IMG/VR virus record: IMGVR_UViG_3300022752_000025
Span: 1 to 64,000 of that record
Origin: a virus
Strand: one strand, 5' to 3'
DNA: 64,000 bases
Shown: one piece after another, positions 4,680-38,198 of the stretch
Layout of the letters: each line of letters starts with the position of its first letter
Numbering within the stretch: position 1 is the stretch's first letter
Translations under genes and position numbers: made by a program
The notes under the pieces: model-generated
What the model saw: the letters and a program-made list of their open reading frames with translations, nothing else
Told to the model about the DNA's origin: nothing
The model's database searches: none

Positions 4680-5263
4680 ATTTCAAATCTTCCATAACCA
4701 AATATTACACCATCTTCTTCATCATCTAGATATAATTCGTCAGCAGAAGAAAAATCAAAATCTCCAAGATTATTTTCTTTAATATCTAAATCTGCCATTT
4801 CAAAATCTTCATCAGATGGTTCAAGCATTGGTTCAATTACAATTCCTGTTCTGGCTTTGGCAATGTCTGTGTCTGCTTTACGATATGCATCTTTGACGGG
4901 TTTTCCACTAACCATCCTAAGAAACATATTTACGCGAGCCATTGCCCACTGTCCACGGGTTTTACCTGGGCGATGAGAAGATGAAAATGCTCCAGCTCCA
5001 CGACGATAAACTTTTTTAAGTTGGCTTAAACTAACTTTCTTTTTATTTTTTGAATTATGTTCTTTTGCTTTATTTTTAAGAGACTCAATAACTTTTTTAG
5101 AAAATTCAATAGCTTTATCGCTTTTAGTTCCAGCGCTCCCAGGTTTATTTTTAGAAGAACCTTTTTTTCTCTCGGATGGTTTTGCTGGAGTTTGTGCTGC
5201 AGACTTAGGGCCTTTTCTTTTAGCATTATTTTCTATGCCATATTTTTCTGGATCGTAAGTCAT
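4676..5263 (-). CDS. Basic head-associated hypothetical protein (DUF5824-like)
   Basis: LKKVYRRGAGAF...QWAMARVN motif; family name from recall. Confidence 0.55.
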   Translation of the reverse strand: MTYDPEKYGIENNAKRKGPKSAAQTPAKPSERKKGSSKNKPGSAGTKSDKAIEFSKKVIESLKNKAKEHNSKNKKKVSLSQLKKVYRRGAGAFSSSHRPGKTRGQWAMARVNMFLRMVSGKPVKDAYRKADTDIAKARTGIVIEPMLEPSDEDFEMADLDIKENNLGDFDFSSADELYLDDEEDGVIFGYGRFEI

Positions 5264-5359
5264 ATATCTATTAAATAATATTATTAATTAATATTACACA
5301 TAATTCTATTATTTTTAATTAATTTTAATTATTTTTAAAATATAATAATCTATTATTTT

Positions 5360-6226
5360 TTAAGATAAAATTATTTTACCTTGCGAAACGCCCTGTTTAT
5401 TTATATTAAGTTCTCCAATTTTATAAGTTGGTAAAATATCATTAATTGTAAATAAAGTCGCTGTATATCCTCCTCCAAGACTAGTCATAGTCGAATTAAT
5501 ATCATTAATATAATAAGAAAGACTAGGGCCACTTATACTAAGAAGAAATGTAAAAGTTAATATAATTTTGTTTTCAAATACAAGGCATATTGGATTTCCA
5601 GAATCTCCACCTACTGGAACTTCATAAAAATTAGCTCTTTGTGCAAAATCAGTTGACGATTGACATACTCCACCCGCTCCATCAAGATAATATTCTCCAA
5701 CAAGCGCATTTCTGTCTTGATCCATAAAAAATGCAGGGAGTTTAACGCTTGAATTAGTTTGATTTGCTATATTAATATCTAATATTTTAGCAAAAGAAAC
5801 GCTAGTAATATCTGAATCTAATAATCCTATTTGAATATCTGTACTACCAACTTGCGCAGAATTTGAAAGAGTTCTTGTATAACAGTTATTATTCATATCA
5901 ACAAAAACAAAAGTTGTTCCATTATAAAATCTAAAATGATTTGCATAAACTATATGTCTAGGACTAATAAGCGTGCCTGATCCTCCATATCCGCCAGGAT
6001 TAAAAGGTATTGGTCCGCTAGCATTATTATTCCAAATTGATTGAGGAGAAGTGTCTATATTTTTTGCCCAACATGTTGTGCTTCTTGTGAAAGCTGGAAT
6101 TGTAGCGCTAGGACTTTTAGAAGAAAATATTTGTTTAGTAGTTGAATTAGCTGTTAATCCTACTATTTTATTATCTATATTAGGATCAAATATAGATCTA
6201 ATAGATGCGCTTTGAGTAATAATCAT
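5360..6226 (-). CDS. Trypsin-like serine protease domain protein
   Basis: GTLISPRHIVYANH (His), DIQIG (Asp), GGDSGNP (Ser) triad motifs. Confidence 0.75.
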   Translation of the reverse strand: MIITQSASIRSIFDPNIDNKIVGLTANSTTKQIFSSKSPSATIPAFTRSTTCWAKNIDTSPQSIWNNNASGPIPFNPGGYGGSGTLISPRHIVYANHFRFYNGTTFVFVDMNNNCYTRTLSNSAQVGSTDIQIGLLDSDITSVSFAKILDINIANQTNSSVKLPAFFMDQDRNALVGEYYLDGAGGVCQSSTDFAQRANFYEVPVGGDSGNPICLVFENKIILTFTFLLSISGPSLSYYINDINSTMTSLGGGYTATLFTINDILPTYKIGELNINKQGVSQGKIILS

Positions 6227-6255
6227 ATACGTATATTAAAATTACACAAATTACT

Positions 6256-10785: not shown

Positions 10786-10832
10786 AATATATTACACTAT
10801 ATTATATATATAAATAATATTAATATCTAATT

Positions 10833-13525: not shown

Positions 13526-15370
13526 TTATTTGATTAATATAGGAGAAAAAGTCTCCGATGTATTTATATTTTGCGTTGACATCATATCATTATAGCACTT
13601 TATAGCCCAATTTGCTAACATAAATGCAGAATAATTATCTTTTCTAGCTTTATTTGCTGAAACGCTTCTTTTTAAATGCTGTGGCAAGTCAAAGCTTTGT
13701 GTCCCTCTGCTTGTCGCGGAGTGCTCAATCAAAACGCATTGTTTTTTTGTTTGATATATAAAATCGTCTTGATTTTCAATAAAATCTAATAATGTCCAAT
13801 CTTTTTTATCTTCCGTTTTCATAAGGTCAAGCGGTATATTTAAAGAAATTGTTTCATTGAAAAAGTTTTCGTCAGAAGCAGTTCTACTCGCGAACCAAAC
13901 TTTTTTATAATCAATACAGGCTTGAAGATATTCGTTTGATTTACGTATAAAATTAGATGTAAAAACTTGATTAAAAGCAATTTTTTTATCTTCTAAATTA
14001 TATTGGTTTTTAACATTTCTCATCATTATTTCGTAATCTTGACCCTCTAATTCGCTATTCATATCCAAGGTTTTAATATTAATTTTATCTTTTTTAAATA
14101 GCTCAGACTCATTACATGCAGCTAAAAATGTATCGGCTCCAGCATTATCAAGAATCATGAATACAATATTAAAATTAGTTAATATATAATATAAGTAATT
14201 AACATGATTTTTGAGATTTCCTAATCCAGCGTATGTATGAACAAGTATACCTTGTTTTTTTTCTTCATCTAATTCCATTACTGCCATAGCAAAATAATCC
14301 GCGTTTGGACTATCACTCATATTAGGATCAATTCCAATGATATATTTTTTATCTTTATTGCCTTTCATTAATGTGTGTGGGTTTTCTCCAGATTTTAATG
14401 TACAATCTTCCATTTTTTTAGCGTTAAAATAACTATCGCTTCCATCTGTGAATTGAGCGCAATATTCTCTAAGAAATCCACTATGACTTGATCCTCCTGC
14501 TTGAGCTTCCTCAATGATTGTTTTGTCTATCATTTCTTCTGGCAATGCTTCGTAGCTCATTTGACTTACGAAATAAGTGGCTTCTCCCCTTTCTTTACTA
14601 TAAATTTTATCTGACCATTCTATATAAGTTTTATATAAATTTTCAAATGTATAACTCGCTGAAGAAAGTGCTATCATTTTACTACTATTTTCAAATACTG
14701 CCCTATCTTCTTCTTTCATGACCCCTTCGGATATTAATTTATCTTCAAATTCTCTAATTTCCATTCTCTCTTTCATGTTTTGTGGAGCTACCAAAAATGG
14801 CATCAATACATTTTTTATAATCTCTTCTGGCAAAAGCAAAAACTCATCCAATACAAGCACATTAGCTCTGAATCCTCGAATTTTTTCTCCATTAAGAGGA
14901 ATCGCTACAATGCTTCCTCCATTTATTTGCCATTCAAATTGATCATTTCTTTTAGTTTTTGCTCCAAAGCATTGCGCTAATAATTCTGCGCCTTTACTAT
15001 TTACAATTTTCTCTAAATTATTAAAAATAAATCTTGCAGTTCTAAAAGTAGGCCCTGCGATTAAAATTTTTGTATTTGGCTCAAATACGCATTGAAGAAA
15101 ACAAAAAACTGCTGCCATAAATGATTTGCCACAGCCTCTACCAAAAACACACATATTAAAATTTCTATTAAGTAAAGCTTTTAAATGTATTTCTTGATAT
15201 GGAGCAAGCTTTACGCCACTTATTAATTCTGTTGAAAATCCAATATTTGCTCTTAAAAATTTTGCCAAAGAGATTTTAGCTTCTTTATCATTAAGAAATC
15301 CCTTAAGCTGTGATAATTCAGCATTTATATCTTTAACTTCTTTTATATATTTTTCTGGGCAATAAATCAT
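13526..15370 (-). CDS. Terminase large subunit
   Basis: Walker A GRGCGKS, Walker B VLVLDE, REYCA, nuclease IIGIDP and C-terminal KDNYSA. Confidence 0.92.
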   Translation of the reverse strand: MIYCPEKYIKEVKDINAELSQLKGFLNDKEAKISLAKFLRANIGFSTELISGVKLAPYQEIHLKALLNRNFNMCVFGRGCGKSFMAAVFCFLQCVFEPNTKILIAGPTFRTARFIFNNLEKIVNSKGAELLAQCFGAKTKRNDQFEWQINGGSIVAIPLNGEKIRGFRANVLVLDEFLLLPEEIIKNVLMPFLVAPQNMKERMEIREFEDKLISEGVMKEEDRAVFENSSKMIALSSASYTFENLYKTYIEWSDKIYSKERGEATYFVSQMSYEALPEEMIDKTIIEEAQAGGSSHSGFLREYCAQFTDGSDSYFNAKKMEDCTLKSGENPHTLMKGNKDKKYIIGIDPNMSDSPNADYFAMAVMELDEEKKQGILVHTYAGLGNLKNHVNYLYYILTNFNIVFMILDNAGADTFLAACNESELFKKDKINIKTLDMNSELEGQDYEIMMRNVKNQYNLEDKKIAFNQVFTSNFIRKSNEYLQACIDYKKVWFASRTASDENFFNETISLNIPLDLMKTEDKKDWTLLDFIENQDDFIYQTKKQCVLIEHSATSRGTQSFDLPQHLKRSVSANKARKDNYSAFMLANWAIKCYNDMMSTQNINTSETFSPILIK

Positions 15371-16302
15371 AAAATTTTCATATCATATATTAATTGAAGA
15401 TCTACTTTTTTATAAAAACATTTACTTGCAAAAATAGATTCAATTACTCTTGTCATTTCATTTCTGCCATCTACAAATAAAAATTGAAGATTATTATAGT
15501 TTTGCAAAAGATCTCTGACATTATGAAATATATATTCTGGTGTAGCTTTTATTTTTTTACTTATATGCGGAAGATACTGAAAACTTAAAGCATTAGATAA
15601 TTTTTCTTCTACCATTACTATAATATAAGAATTATTATCTTTTGCTTTTTTTATTTCATCATTAAAACGATCAAAATTTTTTACGCTTAAAGTGCTTATA
15701 AAGTCACTTAAACTTTTTCTTTCTATAAAACAACTACAATTATCATTTGAACAAGAATAATCTCCAAAGGGTAATGTTTTTATTTCAAATGGGATATTAA
15801 ACTTAAGCCAACTTTGCTCGCGAGTATCTACGTATATAATATCTTTTTGAGTTAATTTATTTTTGAAATTGTTTCCAGTTAAATTTGGATGAATAAATCT
15901 ATTCTCTAATCCGATTTCAGAACAAACTTCATAATAATCTTTAAATATTTTATTATAAAAAATAATTGAAGGAGACATTATTGTTCTTAATTCTACTTGA
16001 GTTGGAGAGTATTGTAAATTTTTAAGTTGTTTTCTTTTAATTAATAATTGCTTGCAATATTCTTGAGCTTTTTCTATTGGCTGCTCTTTAAGCCATTTTT
16101 TCATATTATTTTTATCATTAAAATCGCTATTTAAATACTGTTCTTTTGTTTTAAAATTAATTAATTCATTTGTAAATAAATCTCTGCGCTCATAATATGT
16201 CTGATAATATTTTACTTTATTTAATCCATATCCTTTTAAAGCGAGATGTAGGCTTTTCTCGTCTTTAAATTCCTTGCCGTCTATTTTGCATACTATGCTC
16301 AT
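15367..16302 (-). CDS. ERCC4/XPF-family nuclease with a degenerate N-terminal Zn-finger
   Basis: VDTREQ...GDY...IERKS..D. Confidence 0.8.
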   Translation of the reverse strand: MSIVCKIDGKEFKDEKSLHLALKGYGLNKVKYYQTYYERRDLFTNELINFKTKEQYLNSDFNDKNNMKKWLKEQPIEKAQEYCKQLLIKRKQLKNLQYSPTQVELRTIMSPSIIFYNKIFKDYYEVCSEIGLENRFIHPNLTGNNFKNKLTQKDIIYVDTREQSWLKFNIPFEIKTLPFGDYSCSNDNCSCFIERKSLSDFISTLSVKNFDRFNDEIKKAKDNNSYIIVMVEEKLSNALSFQYLPHISKKIKATPEYIFHNVRDLLQNYNNLQFLFVDGRNEMTRVIESIFASKCFYKKVDLQLIYDMKIL

Positions 16303-18830: not shown

Positions 18831-21617
18831 TTAAAATTGAATATTATCAAAACTATTAATACCAGAAAATACAAAAGGTAATTTAAAATTACTATTTATA
18901 TTAGAAGTATATATATTTAGATTTCCACTAAATACTGGATTTGTTAGTTCAGAATAATTACCAGTACTTTCTACAGATAAATTTTCTGGAACTATTGAGA
19001 CTGGAAGCCCAAGTGCAAATTGTCCCCCAGTTATACCAACGTATAGTGGAATACTATCTGAAATTGTACTTGGTACATTAAATATAATTGTATTTATTCT
19101 ATTCCCACTTATTATATTATAAAATCTTGCTGCGCCATTAAAAGAATATAAATTAGAATTATTATATATTGGTTGCCCAGTCCAAAAAGCTAAACCTAAA
19201 TTATTTATAATATTATCATTTAAATTAGTTGCATTAACAAATGCGTAAGATTTATTTTTTTCTAATTTTAAATCTTTCATTAATTTATAATTTATATTAT
19301 CTGAGGTATACATTGGTTGATCTGAGGAAATTGAATAACCAGTTGCTACATATCGCTCTGTTACTTTCCACCAAGGATAATAATTAATTCTTTCTGTTGC
19401 TCTTATTTTACTAAATAATGGAGTTCTTCTTGCGTTAAAATTATAAGTTATAAAATTATATTCTTTAACTTGACCAGTTAAATTAACTCCTGTTGTAAGA
19501 AATGGTATTTTTTCTGTACCGCCCAATATATTAAAATATCCGCTAAATTGAGCTCCTGCATTCCAATAAATTTTATCTGCAGTATTTAAATTTGGATTGA
19601 ATTCTGTTAATCTATAATTATTTAAAACTTTTTTATTGTATTCTGGTTCAAAAACTCGAACTTGATCTGCTTTTATTTCAAATGAATTTGAATTTCCAGA
19701 ATTTATTTGTAAAAATCTATATCTTTTACCTCTAAGTAAATTAAGGATTCCAGTAGAACTATTGAATTTAATATTTCCATTTTCAAATTTAACTGTAAAA
19801 TTTGCTCCACTAATATTTGGTTTTGGTGGTAACATTACTGATGTATCTATTACAAATCTTAAATCTTGTTGGATTGCTCCAGAAATTGGATTAAATTTTT
19901 TATCTGTAAAAAATCCACTAAAACCAGAAATCCATCTAAATATTTGGGTAGATGAATTTAAATTTTGAATCCAAGGAACGTCACTACTAACTGAGTAATA
20001 TGTTTCTCCTTGTTTTAATGGGTAAATTGTTTTTAAATCTTTAAATATTCCAGTATTAGAATATTCTGCAATTTTATTTATTTTTTTATTTAAATCATTT
20101 TTAATAGAATCTGATTCTAATATACCACCAGTAGCATACAAAGTAAGTCCAAAGAATTTATTATTTTTATTTATAATTCCAGAATTATAAAATTTAACTA
20201 TTTCATTTTTAAGAGAATATGGCTTATAACTTCCACTTATATTTGTTTCATAAAAATAATCATCAGAAAAAATTTCTGCATTATTGAAATTTATATTTAA
20301 ATTTAATGGAATTGAAAATCTTTGACTTTTAAATCCAGTAAAATTCGACCCTAGTATTTCGCCAGTAGCTCTATAGATATAAATATTTTCATTTCTTGAA
20401 ATTAAATTAGAATTAATATTTCCAGTTAAATTTTTTGTATCAATTTTAATTTGAAAATATAAAACTGAATCCTTACCAAGAGAAAATAAATTAATATTTT
20501 GACCAGAAAAAATACTATTTTGTTCAGATGTCCATTTATAATCAAAATTATAAGAAGGAATATCTGGTATTATTTCCATAATTCCTGTATCTGATCCGCC
20601 AAAATAAAACTTTTGTGTAATTGTTCCAGTATTATAAACATAAAAATCTTTAATAAAAAATTGAGGATAAGTTCCAGAGCATTTAATATTAAATCCAGAA
20701 TTGATATTATATAAGCTACCAGTTAAATTCGTGGCGTATAACTCTCCCCAACCTAAAGTATTTGGAGTATTAGTTAAAGTTGGAGTATATTGTACATTTA
20801 AATTACCAGTATAAAAGAATACATTATATCTTGTTTGATTTGGTTGTTCATTTATTTTTCCTAAAATTTTTCCTGCAGATGTTATATTTTTTCTTTTATT
20901 ATATTGATTTTTATCTGGTATTAATAAAATACGATAATTATAATTATTAACATTTTCTCTATTTAATCCAGAAAGAAAGAATATTTTATTATAACCAATT
21001 CTTTCTCCAGTAGCATAACCCAAAGTTTGTCCTGTCAAAATTCCGTATTCAAATAATTCTTGCTGAGAATAAGCTATGTTTGCTCCCATATCTCCAATTT
21101 GTACTCCACTGTGATCAAAAATTTCATTTAAATTTTTATATGGGAATGGTCTTGCTTCTCCTCCTGAAGCAAATGTGTTTGCGTTGATAAATCCACCTAT
21201 AACATAATTTGATGAGTCAATTTTTGTATTATATCCAGACCAAATTTCATCTATATATAAACCGGTAGATTTTGCATTTGTATATGGTAAATTATCCCTA
21301 GAATAATAAATATTATCTGTATAAGAAAAAGAAAAATCTCCATCCGCTAAACCTTTTTGTGAAAACCATCCGTCTCTATACCATTTACCTAAATAATTTT
21401 CTTCTCTTTTTGATTCTATTGTGTTTATATATTTTTGGTTCTTTTTAGATGAACCTTTTGGAATAAAGCCTAAATTACTAGCTTCATTAAATTTTTGTTT
21501 AAAAATTGGTTTTAATAAATTTAAATTTCCATTTTCAATAAAAATCTCATCTTTTAAAGCAATAAAATCATTTATTGCTTCTGCAGAAATATTTCCTGTT
21601 ATTCCAAATCTTTTCAT
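18831..21617 (-). CDS. Large Asn/Ser/Gly-rich virion (tail) protein
   Basis: 928-aa ORF with frequent SG/TG motifs like the other structural genes. Confidence 0.65.
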   Translation of the reverse strand: MKRFGITGNISAEAINDFIALKDEIFIENGNLNLLKPIFKQKFNEASNLGFIPKGSSKKNQKYINTIESKREENYLGKWYRDGWFSQKGLADGDFSFSYTDNIYYSRDNLPYTNAKSTGLYIDEIWSGYNTKIDSSNYVIGGFINANTFASGGEARPFPYKNLNEIFDHSGVQIGDMGANIAYSQQELFEYGILTGQTLGYATGERIGYNKIFFLSGLNRENVNNYNYRILLIPDKNQYNKRKNITSAGKILGKINEQPNQTRYNVFFYTGNLNVQYTPTLTNTPNTLGWGELYATNLTGSLYNINSGFNIKCSGTYPQFFIKDFYVYNTGTITQKFYFGGSDTGIMEIIPDIPSYNFDYKWTSEQNSIFSGQNINLFSLGKDSVLYFQIKIDTKNLTGNINSNLISRNENIYIYRATGEILGSNFTGFKSQRFSIPLNLNINFNNAEIFSDDYFYETNISGSYKPYSLKNEIVKFYNSGIINKNNKFFGLTLYATGGILESDSIKNDLNKKINKIAEYSNTGIFKDLKTIYPLKQGETYYSVSSDVPWIQNLNSSTQIFRWISGFSGFFTDKKFNPISGAIQQDLRFVIDTSVMLPPKPNISGANFTVKFENGNIKFNSSTGILNLLRGKRYRFLQINSGNSNSFEIKADQVRVFEPEYNKKVLNNYRLTEFNPNLNTADKIYWNAGAQFSGYFNILGGTEKIPFLTTGVNLTGQVKEYNFITYNFNARRTPLFSKIRATERINYYPWWKVTERYVATGYSISSDQPMYTSDNINYKLMKDLKLEKNKSYAFVNATNLNDNIINNLGLAFWTGQPIYNNSNLYSFNGAARFYNIISGNRINTIIFNVPSTISDSIPLYVGITGGQFALGLPVSIVPENLSVESTGNYSELTNPVFSGNLNIYTSNINSNFKLPFVFSGINSFDNIQF

Positions 21618-21676
21618 AATTTTAGCCTTAATTTATTAAGTCTGCAGTGTTGTCTTTGGATCAACAAACTCAAGGA

Positions 21677-21995
21677 ACCGGCCTTTAGACCTTTATCCGT
21701 AAAGAGTTCTATTTTTATGATCCTCTAGACGAGGCTCTGTTTTTTTGGCTTAATAAAAACACATTAACGTTTATTTCTCGAAATTTATATCAAGAAACTC
21801 GGTATTACTACCAAGATCGGACTATATCTTGCTTACTAACTTTCATTAGTAAGACCGGGCGCTCGTGTCTCTGTTATTGTTACGGTAACTCAAGAGTTAG
21901 TCTCTACACCTTCATACTTCGTTTTTACCGTGAAGCAAGCTTGGCTCGGTATAATCCACTTGGGACTTCCACCGAATTCACCCAGTATGGCCAAT
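21677..21995 (-). ncRNA. Group I ribozyme (complete P3-P9 core; apparently permuted, not inside a gene)
   Basis: Minus strand: P GAATTCGGTGGAA, Q TATACCGAGCCAAG, R GTAGAGACTA (21898-21907), S AAGATATAGTCC (21819-21830). P3 ACTGGGTG/CGCCCGGT, P8 with GAAA loop, P9 with GTAA loop. Confidence 0.88.
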
Positions 21996-22028
21996 AGAAT
22001 TTTAAAGAACTATTTTAAATTACACTTT

Positions 22029-22751
22029 TTATTTCAATTCTTCAAATTTTTCAATAATATAAGCTAAGATATCATTCCTCATAATATCATCTGTTCCAAA
22101 TTTAAAAGTAACAATACCTTTATCAAAACTTTTTTTATCATCAAAAAGATTATATATTTTTTCAAATCCACTATTTTTAATATCTGATTGTCTTATATCT
22201 CCTATTAATATTAACTTACTAAATCTACCCATTCTAGTAGTAATTAATAAAAGATCATGTATACTTAAATTTTGTGCCTCATCGCAAATTATATAACTCG
22301 CATTTATGCTTAAACCTCTAAGAAATCCTACGGGTAATCCTTTAACTCTTTCTTCTTTTAATAATCTTTCTACTTGATTTTTGGGAAGCAATTCATGTAA
22401 TTTATCCATAAGAGGTTGTAAATATGGATCTAATTTGCTATGAAGATCTCCTTTAAGGAACCCAAGATTGTGAGTAGAGCTTTCAACTGGATTGCGAATA
22501 TAAAATATTTCTCCTATTTTTTTATTAGATAAAGCCTGTAATGCTCCATATACTGAAAGTAAGCTTTTTGCAGTTCCAGCTGGGCCTTTACAAAAAACTA
22601 TTTTTGTATCTTTATTTTGAATTAATTCAATGAATTTCTTTTGATTTTCTGTCCATTGTAATTCTCGAATATCCAAGCCGCCTTCAATTTTATCTCTTTG
22701 AGGAACTACTGGCGATCTATCTTCTTGTTTTTGTTTATGTTTTTTTGACAT
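22029..22751 (-). CDS. phoH: PhoH-family ATPase
   Basis: GPAGTAKS, LGFLKG, FLRGLS, DEAQN, TRMG..SK.IL.GD..QSD. Confidence 0.93.
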   Translation of the reverse strand: MSKKHKQKQEDRSPVVPQRDKIEGGLDIRELQWTENQKKFIELIQNKDTKIVFCKGPAGTAKSLLSVYGALQALSNKKIGEIFYIRNPVESSTHNLGFLKGDLHSKLDPYLQPLMDKLHELLPKNQVERLLKEERVKGLPVGFLRGLSINASYIICDEAQNLSIHDLLLITTRMGRFSKLILIGDIRQSDIKNSGFEKIYNLFDDKKSFDKGIVTFKFGTDDIMRNDILAYIIEKFEELK

Positions 22752-22799: not shown

Positions 22800-23441
22800 A
22801 TGAGTTTTTTAAATGCAAATATACCTCCTATTGAATGTTATGTAAGAGGCAATTATTTAAGAAATCAAAAAGATTCTCATGATAAATATTTTTCATGTTT
22901 AATTTTTGGGGTATCAAGTATTCCTGGTCAAGTTCCGCTTTTTAATTTTTTAATGGAAGATGGAGGAATCTGGTGGCATGCTCCAATTAGCGCATTTACT
23001 TCTAAAGAAGGAGCACCAGAACAAGATCTTCATGAATTAGAACTTTGGGATAGTTTTAGTTATCATATTGCTATAACTAAATTTTCTTTATTTGAAAATA
23101 AAAAAATGAAATTTCTTTCTAGGAATGGTGAAGAATATTTAGGTACATATTTATTTACTTTAGATTGGGCGCATAGTGATCATAATGAAATAAATTTTGG
23201 TTTTAGTGAGCATCCAGATCAACATAAATGTGGGCATGTGCTTAAATTGGATAATGGTAATTTTGCAATACAGCCTAATAATCGTATAAGAGTTTATGAT
23301 CCTAATTTTGTGACAAAACAAGGGCAAACTCTTATAGAAAGAAAAGTAAATACTCAGATTTATACAGTAGAAAATTGCCCAAAATGGGTAACTGAGGATT
23401 CTGATAATTATGAATATAGTGTAAATAAGACAAATGGCTAA
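22800..23441 (+). CDS. Conserved phage hypothetical protein
   Basis: LNANIPP...LWDSFSY...YLFTLDW...HKCGH...GNFAIQPNNR, a recalled aquatic-phage family. Confidence 0.75.
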   Translation: MSFLNANIPPIECYVRGNYLRNQKDSHDKYFSCLIFGVSSIPGQVPLFNFLMEDGGIWWHAPISAFTSKEGAPEQDLHELELWDSFSYHIAITKFSLFENKKMKFLSRNGEEYLGTYLFTLDWAHSDHNEINFGFSEHPDQHKCGHVLKLDNGNFAIQPNNRIRVYDPNFVTKQGQTLIERKVNTQIYTVENCPKWVTEDSDNYEYSVNKTNG

Positions 23442-37723: not shown

Positions 37724-38124
37724 AGAGGTTAATTTATTCTTCTGTTTCTTTCCAATTTGGATGCGCTTTGGCCCACTTTACAAAAACAACTTCAAGATTT
37801 TCCAAGTATTTATCTATCTGTGCAATAAGTTTAGGATCTTCACCTTGCAGAACTCTTTTTTCTAAGATTTTGCTGATCCTATTTTCATGTTTCATATATA
37901 CTATTTTACAGTAGCGTTATAAATATTTCAATATTTTATTTTATCCTGTAAGATTTAAAGAAAAAATTATTTTAGATGTGTAATTACTATTTTAATTAAT
38001 TGTTCTAATGCGCCCCAAAAAATAGAAAAGCCAATAGCAGAAGCAATAATGAATGGGGCGTTTCTATCAAAAAAATTTCTCACATAAAAACTTTACAGCG
38101 AGAAAAAACTTTTGGGAAAATTCT

Positions 38125-38198
38125 CGCTTTCAGCAGGGATCGAACCTGCAACCTACGGATTAGAAATCCGTTGCTCTATCCAATTGAGCTATGAAAGC
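38125..38198 (-). tRNA. tRNA-Arg(TCT)
   Basis: Cloverleaf, loop TT-TCT-AA. Confidence 0.92.

Follow-up and report, generated by a model that had tools for sequence, protein, structure and literature searches.

Group I ribozymes are textbook selfish introns. In the permuted intron–exon (PIE) constructs made from the T4 td intron and the Anabaena pre-tRNA intron, their splice sites have been swapped around an exon that is circularised, with the core split in a peripheral loop. A group I ribozyme gated by c-di-GMP also occurs in a 5' untranslated region of Clostridioides difficile, where the reaction in the leader sets the context of the downstream translation start. Here, a group I ribozyme is described from a stretch of 64,000 nucleotides (G+C 30%; hereafter the window), the first 64 kb of the 132,273-base IMG/VR virus record IMGVR_UViG_3300022752_000025 of a freshwater phage. 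Its core lies on the minus strand between phoH and a gene for a 928-amino acid protein (18831-21617, minus strand). The element is likely to be a guide-first ribozyme, circularly permuted in the loop of P1, that forms the 5' leader of this late gene.

Four published systems bear on this arrangement. Engineered Tetrahymena self-targeting and splicing (STS) constructs carry guide and ribozyme, insert and, at the 3' end of the insert, the target, in that order, and circularise with P1 alone and no P10 (2023, PMC10457212). The corallimorpharian mitochondrial intron ND5-717 is a giant of 18-19 kb that joins coding exons and contains the larger part of the genome within its P8 (Chi et al. 2019, PMC6545197). 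Bacteria have natural circularly permuted group II introns that stand alone, without interrupting any open reading frame (ORF), and yield circular RNAs (Roth et al. 2021, PMC8637638). The lariat-capping ribozyme GIR1 is derived from a group I ribozyme, lies before an mRNA and shapes its 5' end; it is without P1 and forms a 3-nt 2',5' lariat by branching (PMC8637638). In the literature searches made, no natural permuted group I ribozyme was found for phages or bacteria, the layout being found only for engineered RNAs and for ND5-717.

The phage element differs from each of these. Splice-site order is swapped in it as in PIE constructs, but its core is contiguous from 21986 to 21774, the substrate strand of P1 being the sole part that has changed place. 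STS constructs are a laboratory design built from a different intron, whereas in the phage an mRNA follows the target, so that the first step would also make an mRNA 5' end. The element is about 230 nt long and without flanking coding exons, unlike ND5-717. The permuted group II introns belong to another ribozyme class, use branching chemistry and are not positioned as mRNA leaders. In contrast to GIR1, the phage element retains a P1 wobble, the guanosine site in P7 and a candidate terminal G. The C. difficile ribozyme shares with it the position in a leader, but has the canonical splice-site order and a riboswitch, neither of which is seen in the phage. Judged from its sequence, the element appears to be a group I ribozyme in new wiring, resembling both an STS or PIE circularising construct and a leader-processing ribozyme.

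An intact group I core that interrupts no gene

A preliminary description of the locus, made from the letters alone, had proposed a complete group I core on the minus strand between phoH and the next gene. The covariance model search that it called for bore this out: RF00028 matched the minus strand at 21798-22062 with 66.6 bits (E 1.8e-16; gathering score 50; about 1 kb searched), and matched again in a search of the phage's own genome. Rfam scans of the whole window at two thresholds listed no group I ribozyme, apparently owing to speed filters, and a permissive scan of 21300-22400 (E up to 10) added to RF00028 only four matches at chance level. The catalytic core spans 21986-21774 and contains P3 (21986-21979/21861-21854), P4 to P6a, P7 (21902-21898/21824-21820), P7.1/7.2, P8 with a GAAA loop, P9 with a GUAA loop, and P9.1.

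Relatives were collected by pattern searches, which gave about 32 non-identical loci without upstream P1 and P2, and 67 canonical introns of the same sequence family were used as controls. On an alignment of 24 members, 89.6% of the paired cells in the core were filled by pairs, compared with 74.1% in shuffles (0 of 500 reached the observed value) and 36-38% with slid partners. Every helix from P3 to P9.1 is supported and all core helices covary, while over the 24 diverged members no variation is seen in the P7 pairs or in J8/7, the stretch that links P8 to P7. By these comparisons, the group I core at this locus is real, complete and intact.

Among the controls, the canonical phage introns in the tape-measure gene of locus L122, in a tRNA gene of L143 and in L171 have the P3-P9.1 core in common with the window's element, including GUGAAUUCGG...CCGAGCCAAGC and AAGAUAUAGUC, as well as an A-rich P9.1 loop and the AUAAC..UG 3' tail. 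Only the canonical relatives interrupt genes, and upstream of their cores stand a 5' exon strand, a guide and a P2 hairpin capped by a GNRA loop, then an A-rich J2/3. In the window, by contrast, the guide abuts P3, about 370 nt separate it from its downstream target, and the element interrupts no gene.

The element stands alone, as had been proposed, and neither P1 nor P2 lies in front of its core. The upstream phoH gene (22029-22751) is complete, its product matching PF02562 over profile positions 6-204 of 205, and the 928-amino acid ORF has its own ATG, preceded by an in-frame TAA at 21635-21633, exactly where the preliminary description had put it. Because both genes are thus whole, and because the spacer between core and target holds neither a tRNA nor an ATG, the element is best called a group I ribozyme and not an intron in the usual sense.

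A guide beside P3 with a covarying target behind the core

Two bases before P3 lies the putative internal guide sequence UUGGCC (21994-21989), the 3' strand of P1, and behind the core lies GGCU|AA (21627-21622), the putative P1 substrate strand with a predicted 5' splice or cleavage site at U21624|A21623. The P1 wobble would be G21992.U21624, six bases before the ATG of the 928-amino acid gene. That the strand next to P3 finds its partner downstream of the core had already been suggested; the outline was right, but the partner proposed was GGCCGGU (21683-21677). The 7-bp helix of AUUGGCC with GGCCGGU can be drawn, with two of its pairs being U.G, and is unconserved.

The order of guide, core, terminal G, insert and target site holds in about 32 related loci, and guide and target change together every time in this non-canonical set. 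Guide UGGUCC is found with target GGACUA, UGGGC with GCCUA, UGCCC with GGGUA, UAGCGU with ACGUUA, UUGCCU with AGGUAA, UGCCA with UGGUA, and UGUCCG with CGGAUA. On the 24-row alignment (A2), the rows of which were cut at the inferred sites, the P1 helix is 84% paired and four of its six pairs change on both sides. At the wobble, 20 rows have G.U, 1 has G-C and 3 have something else, these 3 being shifted by one alignment column. Of the neighbouring pairs, one is GC 13, CG 9 and UA 1, the other CG 18, GC 2, UA 2 and UG 2. A conserved G.U between Watson–Crick pairs beside an intact core is the signature of P1, here with its substrate strand moved behind the ribozyme.

A position-only rule, set in advance, predicts the target from the guide. 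Counted back from the invariant GUGAAUUCGG, the wobble G is 11 nt away (12 in rare cases), and the 5-nt target consists of the complement of the three bases after the wobble G, a U, and the complement of the base before the G. Members had their own target in their own leader in 17 of 24 cases, compared with 21 of 240 for targets of foreign classes (Fisher p 2e-11); with a single representative per class, the counts were 11 of 13 and 16 of 130 (p 9e-8). The fully Watson–Crick version of the target, with C for U, occurred once among the 24, in L097. Members on metagenome contigs that were fetched later served as a prospective test, and all 8 had the predicted target, new guide variants included. 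Of 30 members, 27 have the target within 250 nt on the downstream side and 5 have it within 250 nt on the upstream side, the latter being the level of chance. Taken together, these results make it highly probable that the guide at 21994-21989 pairs with 21627-21622.

Other searches gave less. A generic search for any helix of at least 5 bp between guide and leader was too noisy for use, and the pattern GTTCTTT..GTGAATTCGG returned mostly chance matches, with L277 and L307 as its only new members. A candidate P2 hairpin (AAUAG at 22014-22010 with CUAUU at 21997-21993) seemed to covary in three lineages; it requires bases from the 7 nt that separate the promoter-like motif from the inferred start, and was not counted as part of the element. 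L181 has an A-U pair in place of the G.U between guide and target, and in this locus a perfect 19-bp long-range duplex can be seen between the upstream box region AAUAAUUACAGUUCUUUCU (about 6150-6230) and a strand about 200 nt downstream of the core.

The candidate terminal G and the spacer

Behind P9.1 the core runs into the tail UAAACGUUAAUG (21773-21762), which ends in the candidate terminal G, G21762. A tail of the form AUAAC-N(2-5)-UG after P9.1 is present in 21 of the 25 rows listed, three rows without P9.1 end in UUG, and L181 does not fit. In the canonical relative L122 this tail stops exactly at the 3' splice site, and a tape-measure frame of 1372 codons is restored when the exons are joined at that point (..LALFAQNG|LKGSDAGTSLKTML..). 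By homology with the L122 tail, G21762 is the favoured candidate for the terminal G of the window's element. The preliminary description had named it along with 21760 and 21768, and had written its circle junction for 21760, which is not the position favoured here.

Between G21762 and the predicted cleavage site lies a spacer of 138 nt (21761-21624), topologically an exon. The predicted circle is this spacer, with the junction ...AAGGCU|UGUUUU..., in place of the 55-63-nt circle and the junction previously proposed. Its ends are closed by a stem of UUUAUUAAG (21757-21749) with CUUAAUAAA (21640-21632). A consensus fold of six relatives makes the spacer a rod with paired ends, in which 16 of 38 pairs show compensatory change, and 15 of 21 spacers folded as single sequences pair end to end. 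GGCCGGU and the hairpin in front of it (21711-21686), which had been taken for P1, fall in the variable tip of this rod, where the spacer is least conserved: the hairpin can be drawn but no P1 is there. L341 and L347 lack the region 21711-21677, while L050, L062 and L088 differ from the window there, and four-way and six-way alignments showed that the long-range P2 and the P1 of the earlier proposal are kept in 0 of 5 close relatives; nor are they kept in the second copy of the ribozyme in this genome. The permuted order of core, terminal G, exon and splice-site helix stands as first proposed, with the break in the loop of P1 and not in L2, and with the core unsplit.

Spacer lengths range from 15 to 192 nt between subfamilies. 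ARAGORN runs on doubled spacers gave no permuted tRNA in any of the 24, and a circle-encoded peptide was rejected as a common feature, given that 18 of the 24 spacers contain an ATG and that of the window does not.

A promoter-like motif and a leader box in front of the guide

The promoter-like motif GTGTAAT (22025-22019) and the boxA-like GTTCTTTAAA (22010-22001), both noted in the preliminary description, were found at the positions given there; the leader box as a whole reads AGUUCUUUAAAA (22011-22000), and it resembles the bacterial boxA sequence. GTGTAAT precedes 28 of 33 members of the ribozyme family. GTGTAA occurs at 52 sites of the genome, about 28 of which are followed at 12-36 nt by the ATG of an ORF, and in protein genes the ATG is typically the eighth base after the 7-mer. 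The position 8 nt after the 7-mer in the 33 ribozyme members is the start of the leader box, AGUUCUUU, in 11 (the window included, at A22011) and the wobble G of the guide in 12. If GTGTAAT is a promoter, the transcript opens with the guide or a short leader box, which leaves no room for an upstream exon. The RNA of the window's element probably starts at A22011.

The composite of motif and box occurs five times in the genome, and three of these precede the two ribozymes and a tmRNA gene. The tmRNA gene lies outside the window, at 97160-97547 (plus strand) of the record, and was identified by ARAGORN with the tag AKTAKYKGHISARVSLVEETASVA; before it stand GTGTAAA, 7 nt and AGTTCTTTCTAA, the same succession of motif, spacing and boxA-like box as before both ribozymes. 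GTGTAAT followed by 7 nt and ATG recurs in the window and throughout the genome, e.g. at 10797, 28251, 43698 and 56666 (-), and the same spacing from motif to ATG is seen in 14 of 54 related phoH loci. Should GTGTAAT act as a promoter of the -10 type, many of the phage's late mRNAs would have no leader or almost none. In seven relatives (L085, L086, L089, L090, L091, L092 and L189) a box AGUUCUUUGAAA lies in the P5 loop instead of at the 5' end, with the guide G at the inferred +1. In L097, an intrinsic-terminator-like hairpin and a second GTGTAAT lie between the ribozyme unit and the gene, within the 120 nt that follow the unit, as if this unit were a separate transcription unit or decaying.

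Proposed mechanism

The preferred reading can be set out as four steps. Transcription from GTGTAAT would begin near A22011, so that the RNA starts with the boxA-like leader and UUGGCC and has no upstream exon. As the covariation shows, the guide then pairs with GGCUAA (21627-21622) far behind the intact P3-P9.1 core, forming P1 with G21992.U21624. By the usual chemistry of group I ribozymes, guanosine or GTP bound in P7 would attack after U21624 and free G-AAAAUU-AUG..., an mRNA with a very short leader that resembles the products of the phage's other GTGTAAT-driven genes. Less certainly, the 3'-OH of U21624 would attack after G21762, closing the spacer 21761-21624 into a 138-nt circle and freeing a linear ribozyme of about 250 nt. 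Because engineered STS constructs with the same order of parts need P1 alone, this second step is chemically plausible without P10. We would expect guanosine-dependent cleavage at U21624|A21623 with reasonable confidence, whereas the chances of a 138-nt circle from the window's element are put slightly below even. Processing of the 5' end of the downstream mRNA, which the preliminary description had held as an alternative to circle formation, is part of this reading.

Several observations weigh against the mechanism as a whole or in part. Folded alone, the spacer of the window forms 0 end-to-end pairs. The spacers of L165, L188 and L216 have just 15-20 nt, implausibly small for a useful circle, so that circularisation may not be the common purpose and the cut may be the selected outcome. 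By eye, there is no consistent P10 between the 5' side of the guide and the start of the spacer. L097 has G-C for the G.U pair, and three more members are one base off the exact 5-nt target. The pairing figures from the 24-row alignment lean towards P1 on account of the way its rows were cut, a bias from which the rule test, the prospective test of eight members and the comparison of downstream with upstream sequence are free. GGCU overlaps the Shine–Dalgarno-like AAGG, and the pairing could act by masking alone. Lastly, the start site, the cleavage and the circle are alike predictions.

In a rival explanation, P1 is real and the RNA is cut at U21624|A21623 by guanosine or hydrolysis, but no second step follows and the spacer is a structured tether that presents the target. 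Such a tether would accommodate spacer lengths from 15 to 192 nt with little sequence in common between subfamilies, including the three very short ones, and would need no P10; the start codon 5-11 nt after the cut in 10 of 24 members would then point to the mRNA end as the selected product. This explanation is at odds with the AUAAC..UG tail, which is the 3' splice site in canonical relatives and yet is kept in every subfamily that bears P9.1, with the UUG end kept in the three rows without it, as well as with spacers that are conserved within subfamilies, rod-shaped and paired at their ends. A terminator or a second promoter-like motif between unit and gene, found in L097 and the L085 type, also speaks against it, because the ribozyme unit seems to be self-standing there. 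We think cleavage without circularisation rather unlikely.

An ordinary cis-splicing intron is a good deal harder to defend. It would have its 5' splice site in the last codons of phoH (UAUAUUAU|U with GUGUAAU) and would replace the C terminus of PhoH; the Rfam model does align a weak and mismatched P1 there, which by eye amounts to 5 bp and a U.G, and AAUAAAAA, which precedes GUGUAAU, could form pairs with UUUUUAUU behind G21760. But GTGTAA is found before gene starts throughout the genome (the 52 sites above), so its presence needs no P1, and the PhoH match reaches profile position 204 of 205 without a second exon. The pairing is weaker in L050 and L062, which have GUGUAAC, and the upstream sequence is unrelated in other family members, where the target predicted from the true guide occurs upstream at the chance rate of 5 in 30. 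We consider splicing of this kind very improbable.

A non-catalytic structured leader, either with a relic core or masking the start region through the long-range pairing, has about equally little to recommend it. The overlap of GGCU with AAGG just before the ATG would suit masking, but a relic would hardly keep the P7 pairs and J8/7 invariant in 24 diverged members in which all core helices covary, and a masking helix would not require G.U at the cut in 20 of 24 rows with G-C in 1; in several subfamilies, moreover, the target is 30-70 nt from the ATG. The version opened in L2, with AUUGGCC/GGCCGGU as P2, the hairpin 21711-21686 as P1 and a circle of 55-63 nt, can be drawn in the window but has next to no chance of being right, as neither element is kept in the five close relatives or the second copy, both fall in a variable rod tip that is deleted in L341 and L347, and the guide has a covarying partner elsewhere.

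In this reading, selection has kept the same catalytic core in another wiring and for another task, at the head of phage late genes. If its chemistry follows the anatomy, the element would be nature's counterpart to the ribozyme-first designs now engineered for circular RNA, and phage-infected bacteria would have in it a natural source of small circular RNAs. It would also offer a new route to an mRNA 5' end, which could couple late-gene expression with the host guanosine nucleotide pool. The covarying guide-target pairs provide a ready set of natural specificity variants. More speculatively, guide-first group I ribozymes may form a lineage that has diversified in aquatic phages and acts as a set of two-product devices, in which a cut dependent on guanosine nucleotide yields a late mRNA with a 5' G, in the near-leaderless form that this phage translates, together with a circle of the conserved rod-shaped spacer with a role of its own, while the boxA-like leader shared with the tmRNA gene shields long untranslated RNAs from premature termination; this wider picture is offered tentatively.

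The downstream gene and the ribozyme family

The ribozyme is placed to serve the 928-amino acid gene (18831-21617, minus strand), the ATG of which is 6 nt past the predicted cut. The preliminary description had called this a tail gene, a label that the searches do not support: the protein has no match among Pfam families or PHROGs, and its Atlas scores are at most 0.77 with template modelling (TM) scores of at most 0.28. AlphaFold2, run on a 6-row alignment, gave an unusable model (predicted local distance difference test, pLDDT, 39). The N-terminal domain of the protein has homologues in six ribozyme subfamilies, at 28-38% identity. Of 12 viral loci that encode this domain, 11 have a core 350-586 nt upstream and the twelfth is truncated inside the ribozyme. 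Other subfamilies stand before unrelated genes, including a glucosyltransferase-like and a virion-protein-like gene.

A second core was found in the same genome at 84423-84733, in an intergenic region, with 90% identity over 232 nt. The first 200 residues encoded by the gene behind it are paralogous to the 928-amino acid protein (27% identity). This second guide-first unit, outside the window, spans 84256-84650 (locus L001) and has the guide UGGGC and the target GCCU|AAAAAUCAUG. Among loci with close relatives of PhoH (the best 80 of 171 confirmed loci), only L050 and L062 have the ribozyme; their downstream gene is the same as that of the window, whereas other PhoH-relative loci have a different gene after phoH, which suggests that the ribozyme travels with the downstream gene and not with phoH. 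In L035, a relative without the ribozyme, an untranslated stretch of about 170 nt (5185-5365) lies between two GTGTAA motifs before the homologue of the 928-amino acid gene. The ends of this stretch can pair (AUUUGCCUC with GAGGCAAAU), and the stretch may represent a spacer-like RNA that lacks a ribozyme.

A phylogenetic tree of 100 cores was constructed by a quick search on 196 columns, with a branching order that is tentative. The 33 permuted rows need 5 label changes on this tree; shuffled labels need about 28, and none of 500 shuffles came down to the observed number. The window falls in a clade of 23 rows, all of them permuted, with a Shimodaira–Hasegawa-like approximate likelihood ratio (SH-aLRT) support of 98, in which the second copy of the genome is its sister. 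A single origin of the permuted rows is compatible with the well-supported branches. This clustering, along with the paralogous second copy, is read here as a sign that the permuted ribozymes are kept under selection.

Occurrence in sequence data and other features of the window

A blastn search of the region against deposited phages gave a sole match of 50 nt (86%) to an unannotated stretch of Pseudoalteromonas phage H101. In three DNA runs (X1-X3), assembly contigs end at both edges of the core (window 21855-22002) and depth is higher over the core, as is expected for a repeat common to the two genomic copies and relatives. Only 1 of 22 listed runs was an RNA run that covered part of the stretch (X10, share 0.10); one of its contigs lies inside the 928-amino acid gene and one on the phoH end of a relative. 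No contig of X10 crosses the ribozyme, and no joints were seen in any run.

Elsewhere in the window, PHROGs place a large terminase subunit at 13526-15370 (minus strand), an ERCC4-type nuclease at 15367-16302 (minus strand) and a ferredoxin at 22800-23441 (plus strand), while no PHROGs family is assigned to the five ORFs that separate the terminase gene from the ribozyme-led gene. A weak Rfam match to plastid ycf2 at 38124-38198 (plus strand) is surely spurious, being antisense to a tRNA. Eight tRNA genes in two clusters were identified by Rfam and ARAGORN between 36238 and 46309 (minus strand).

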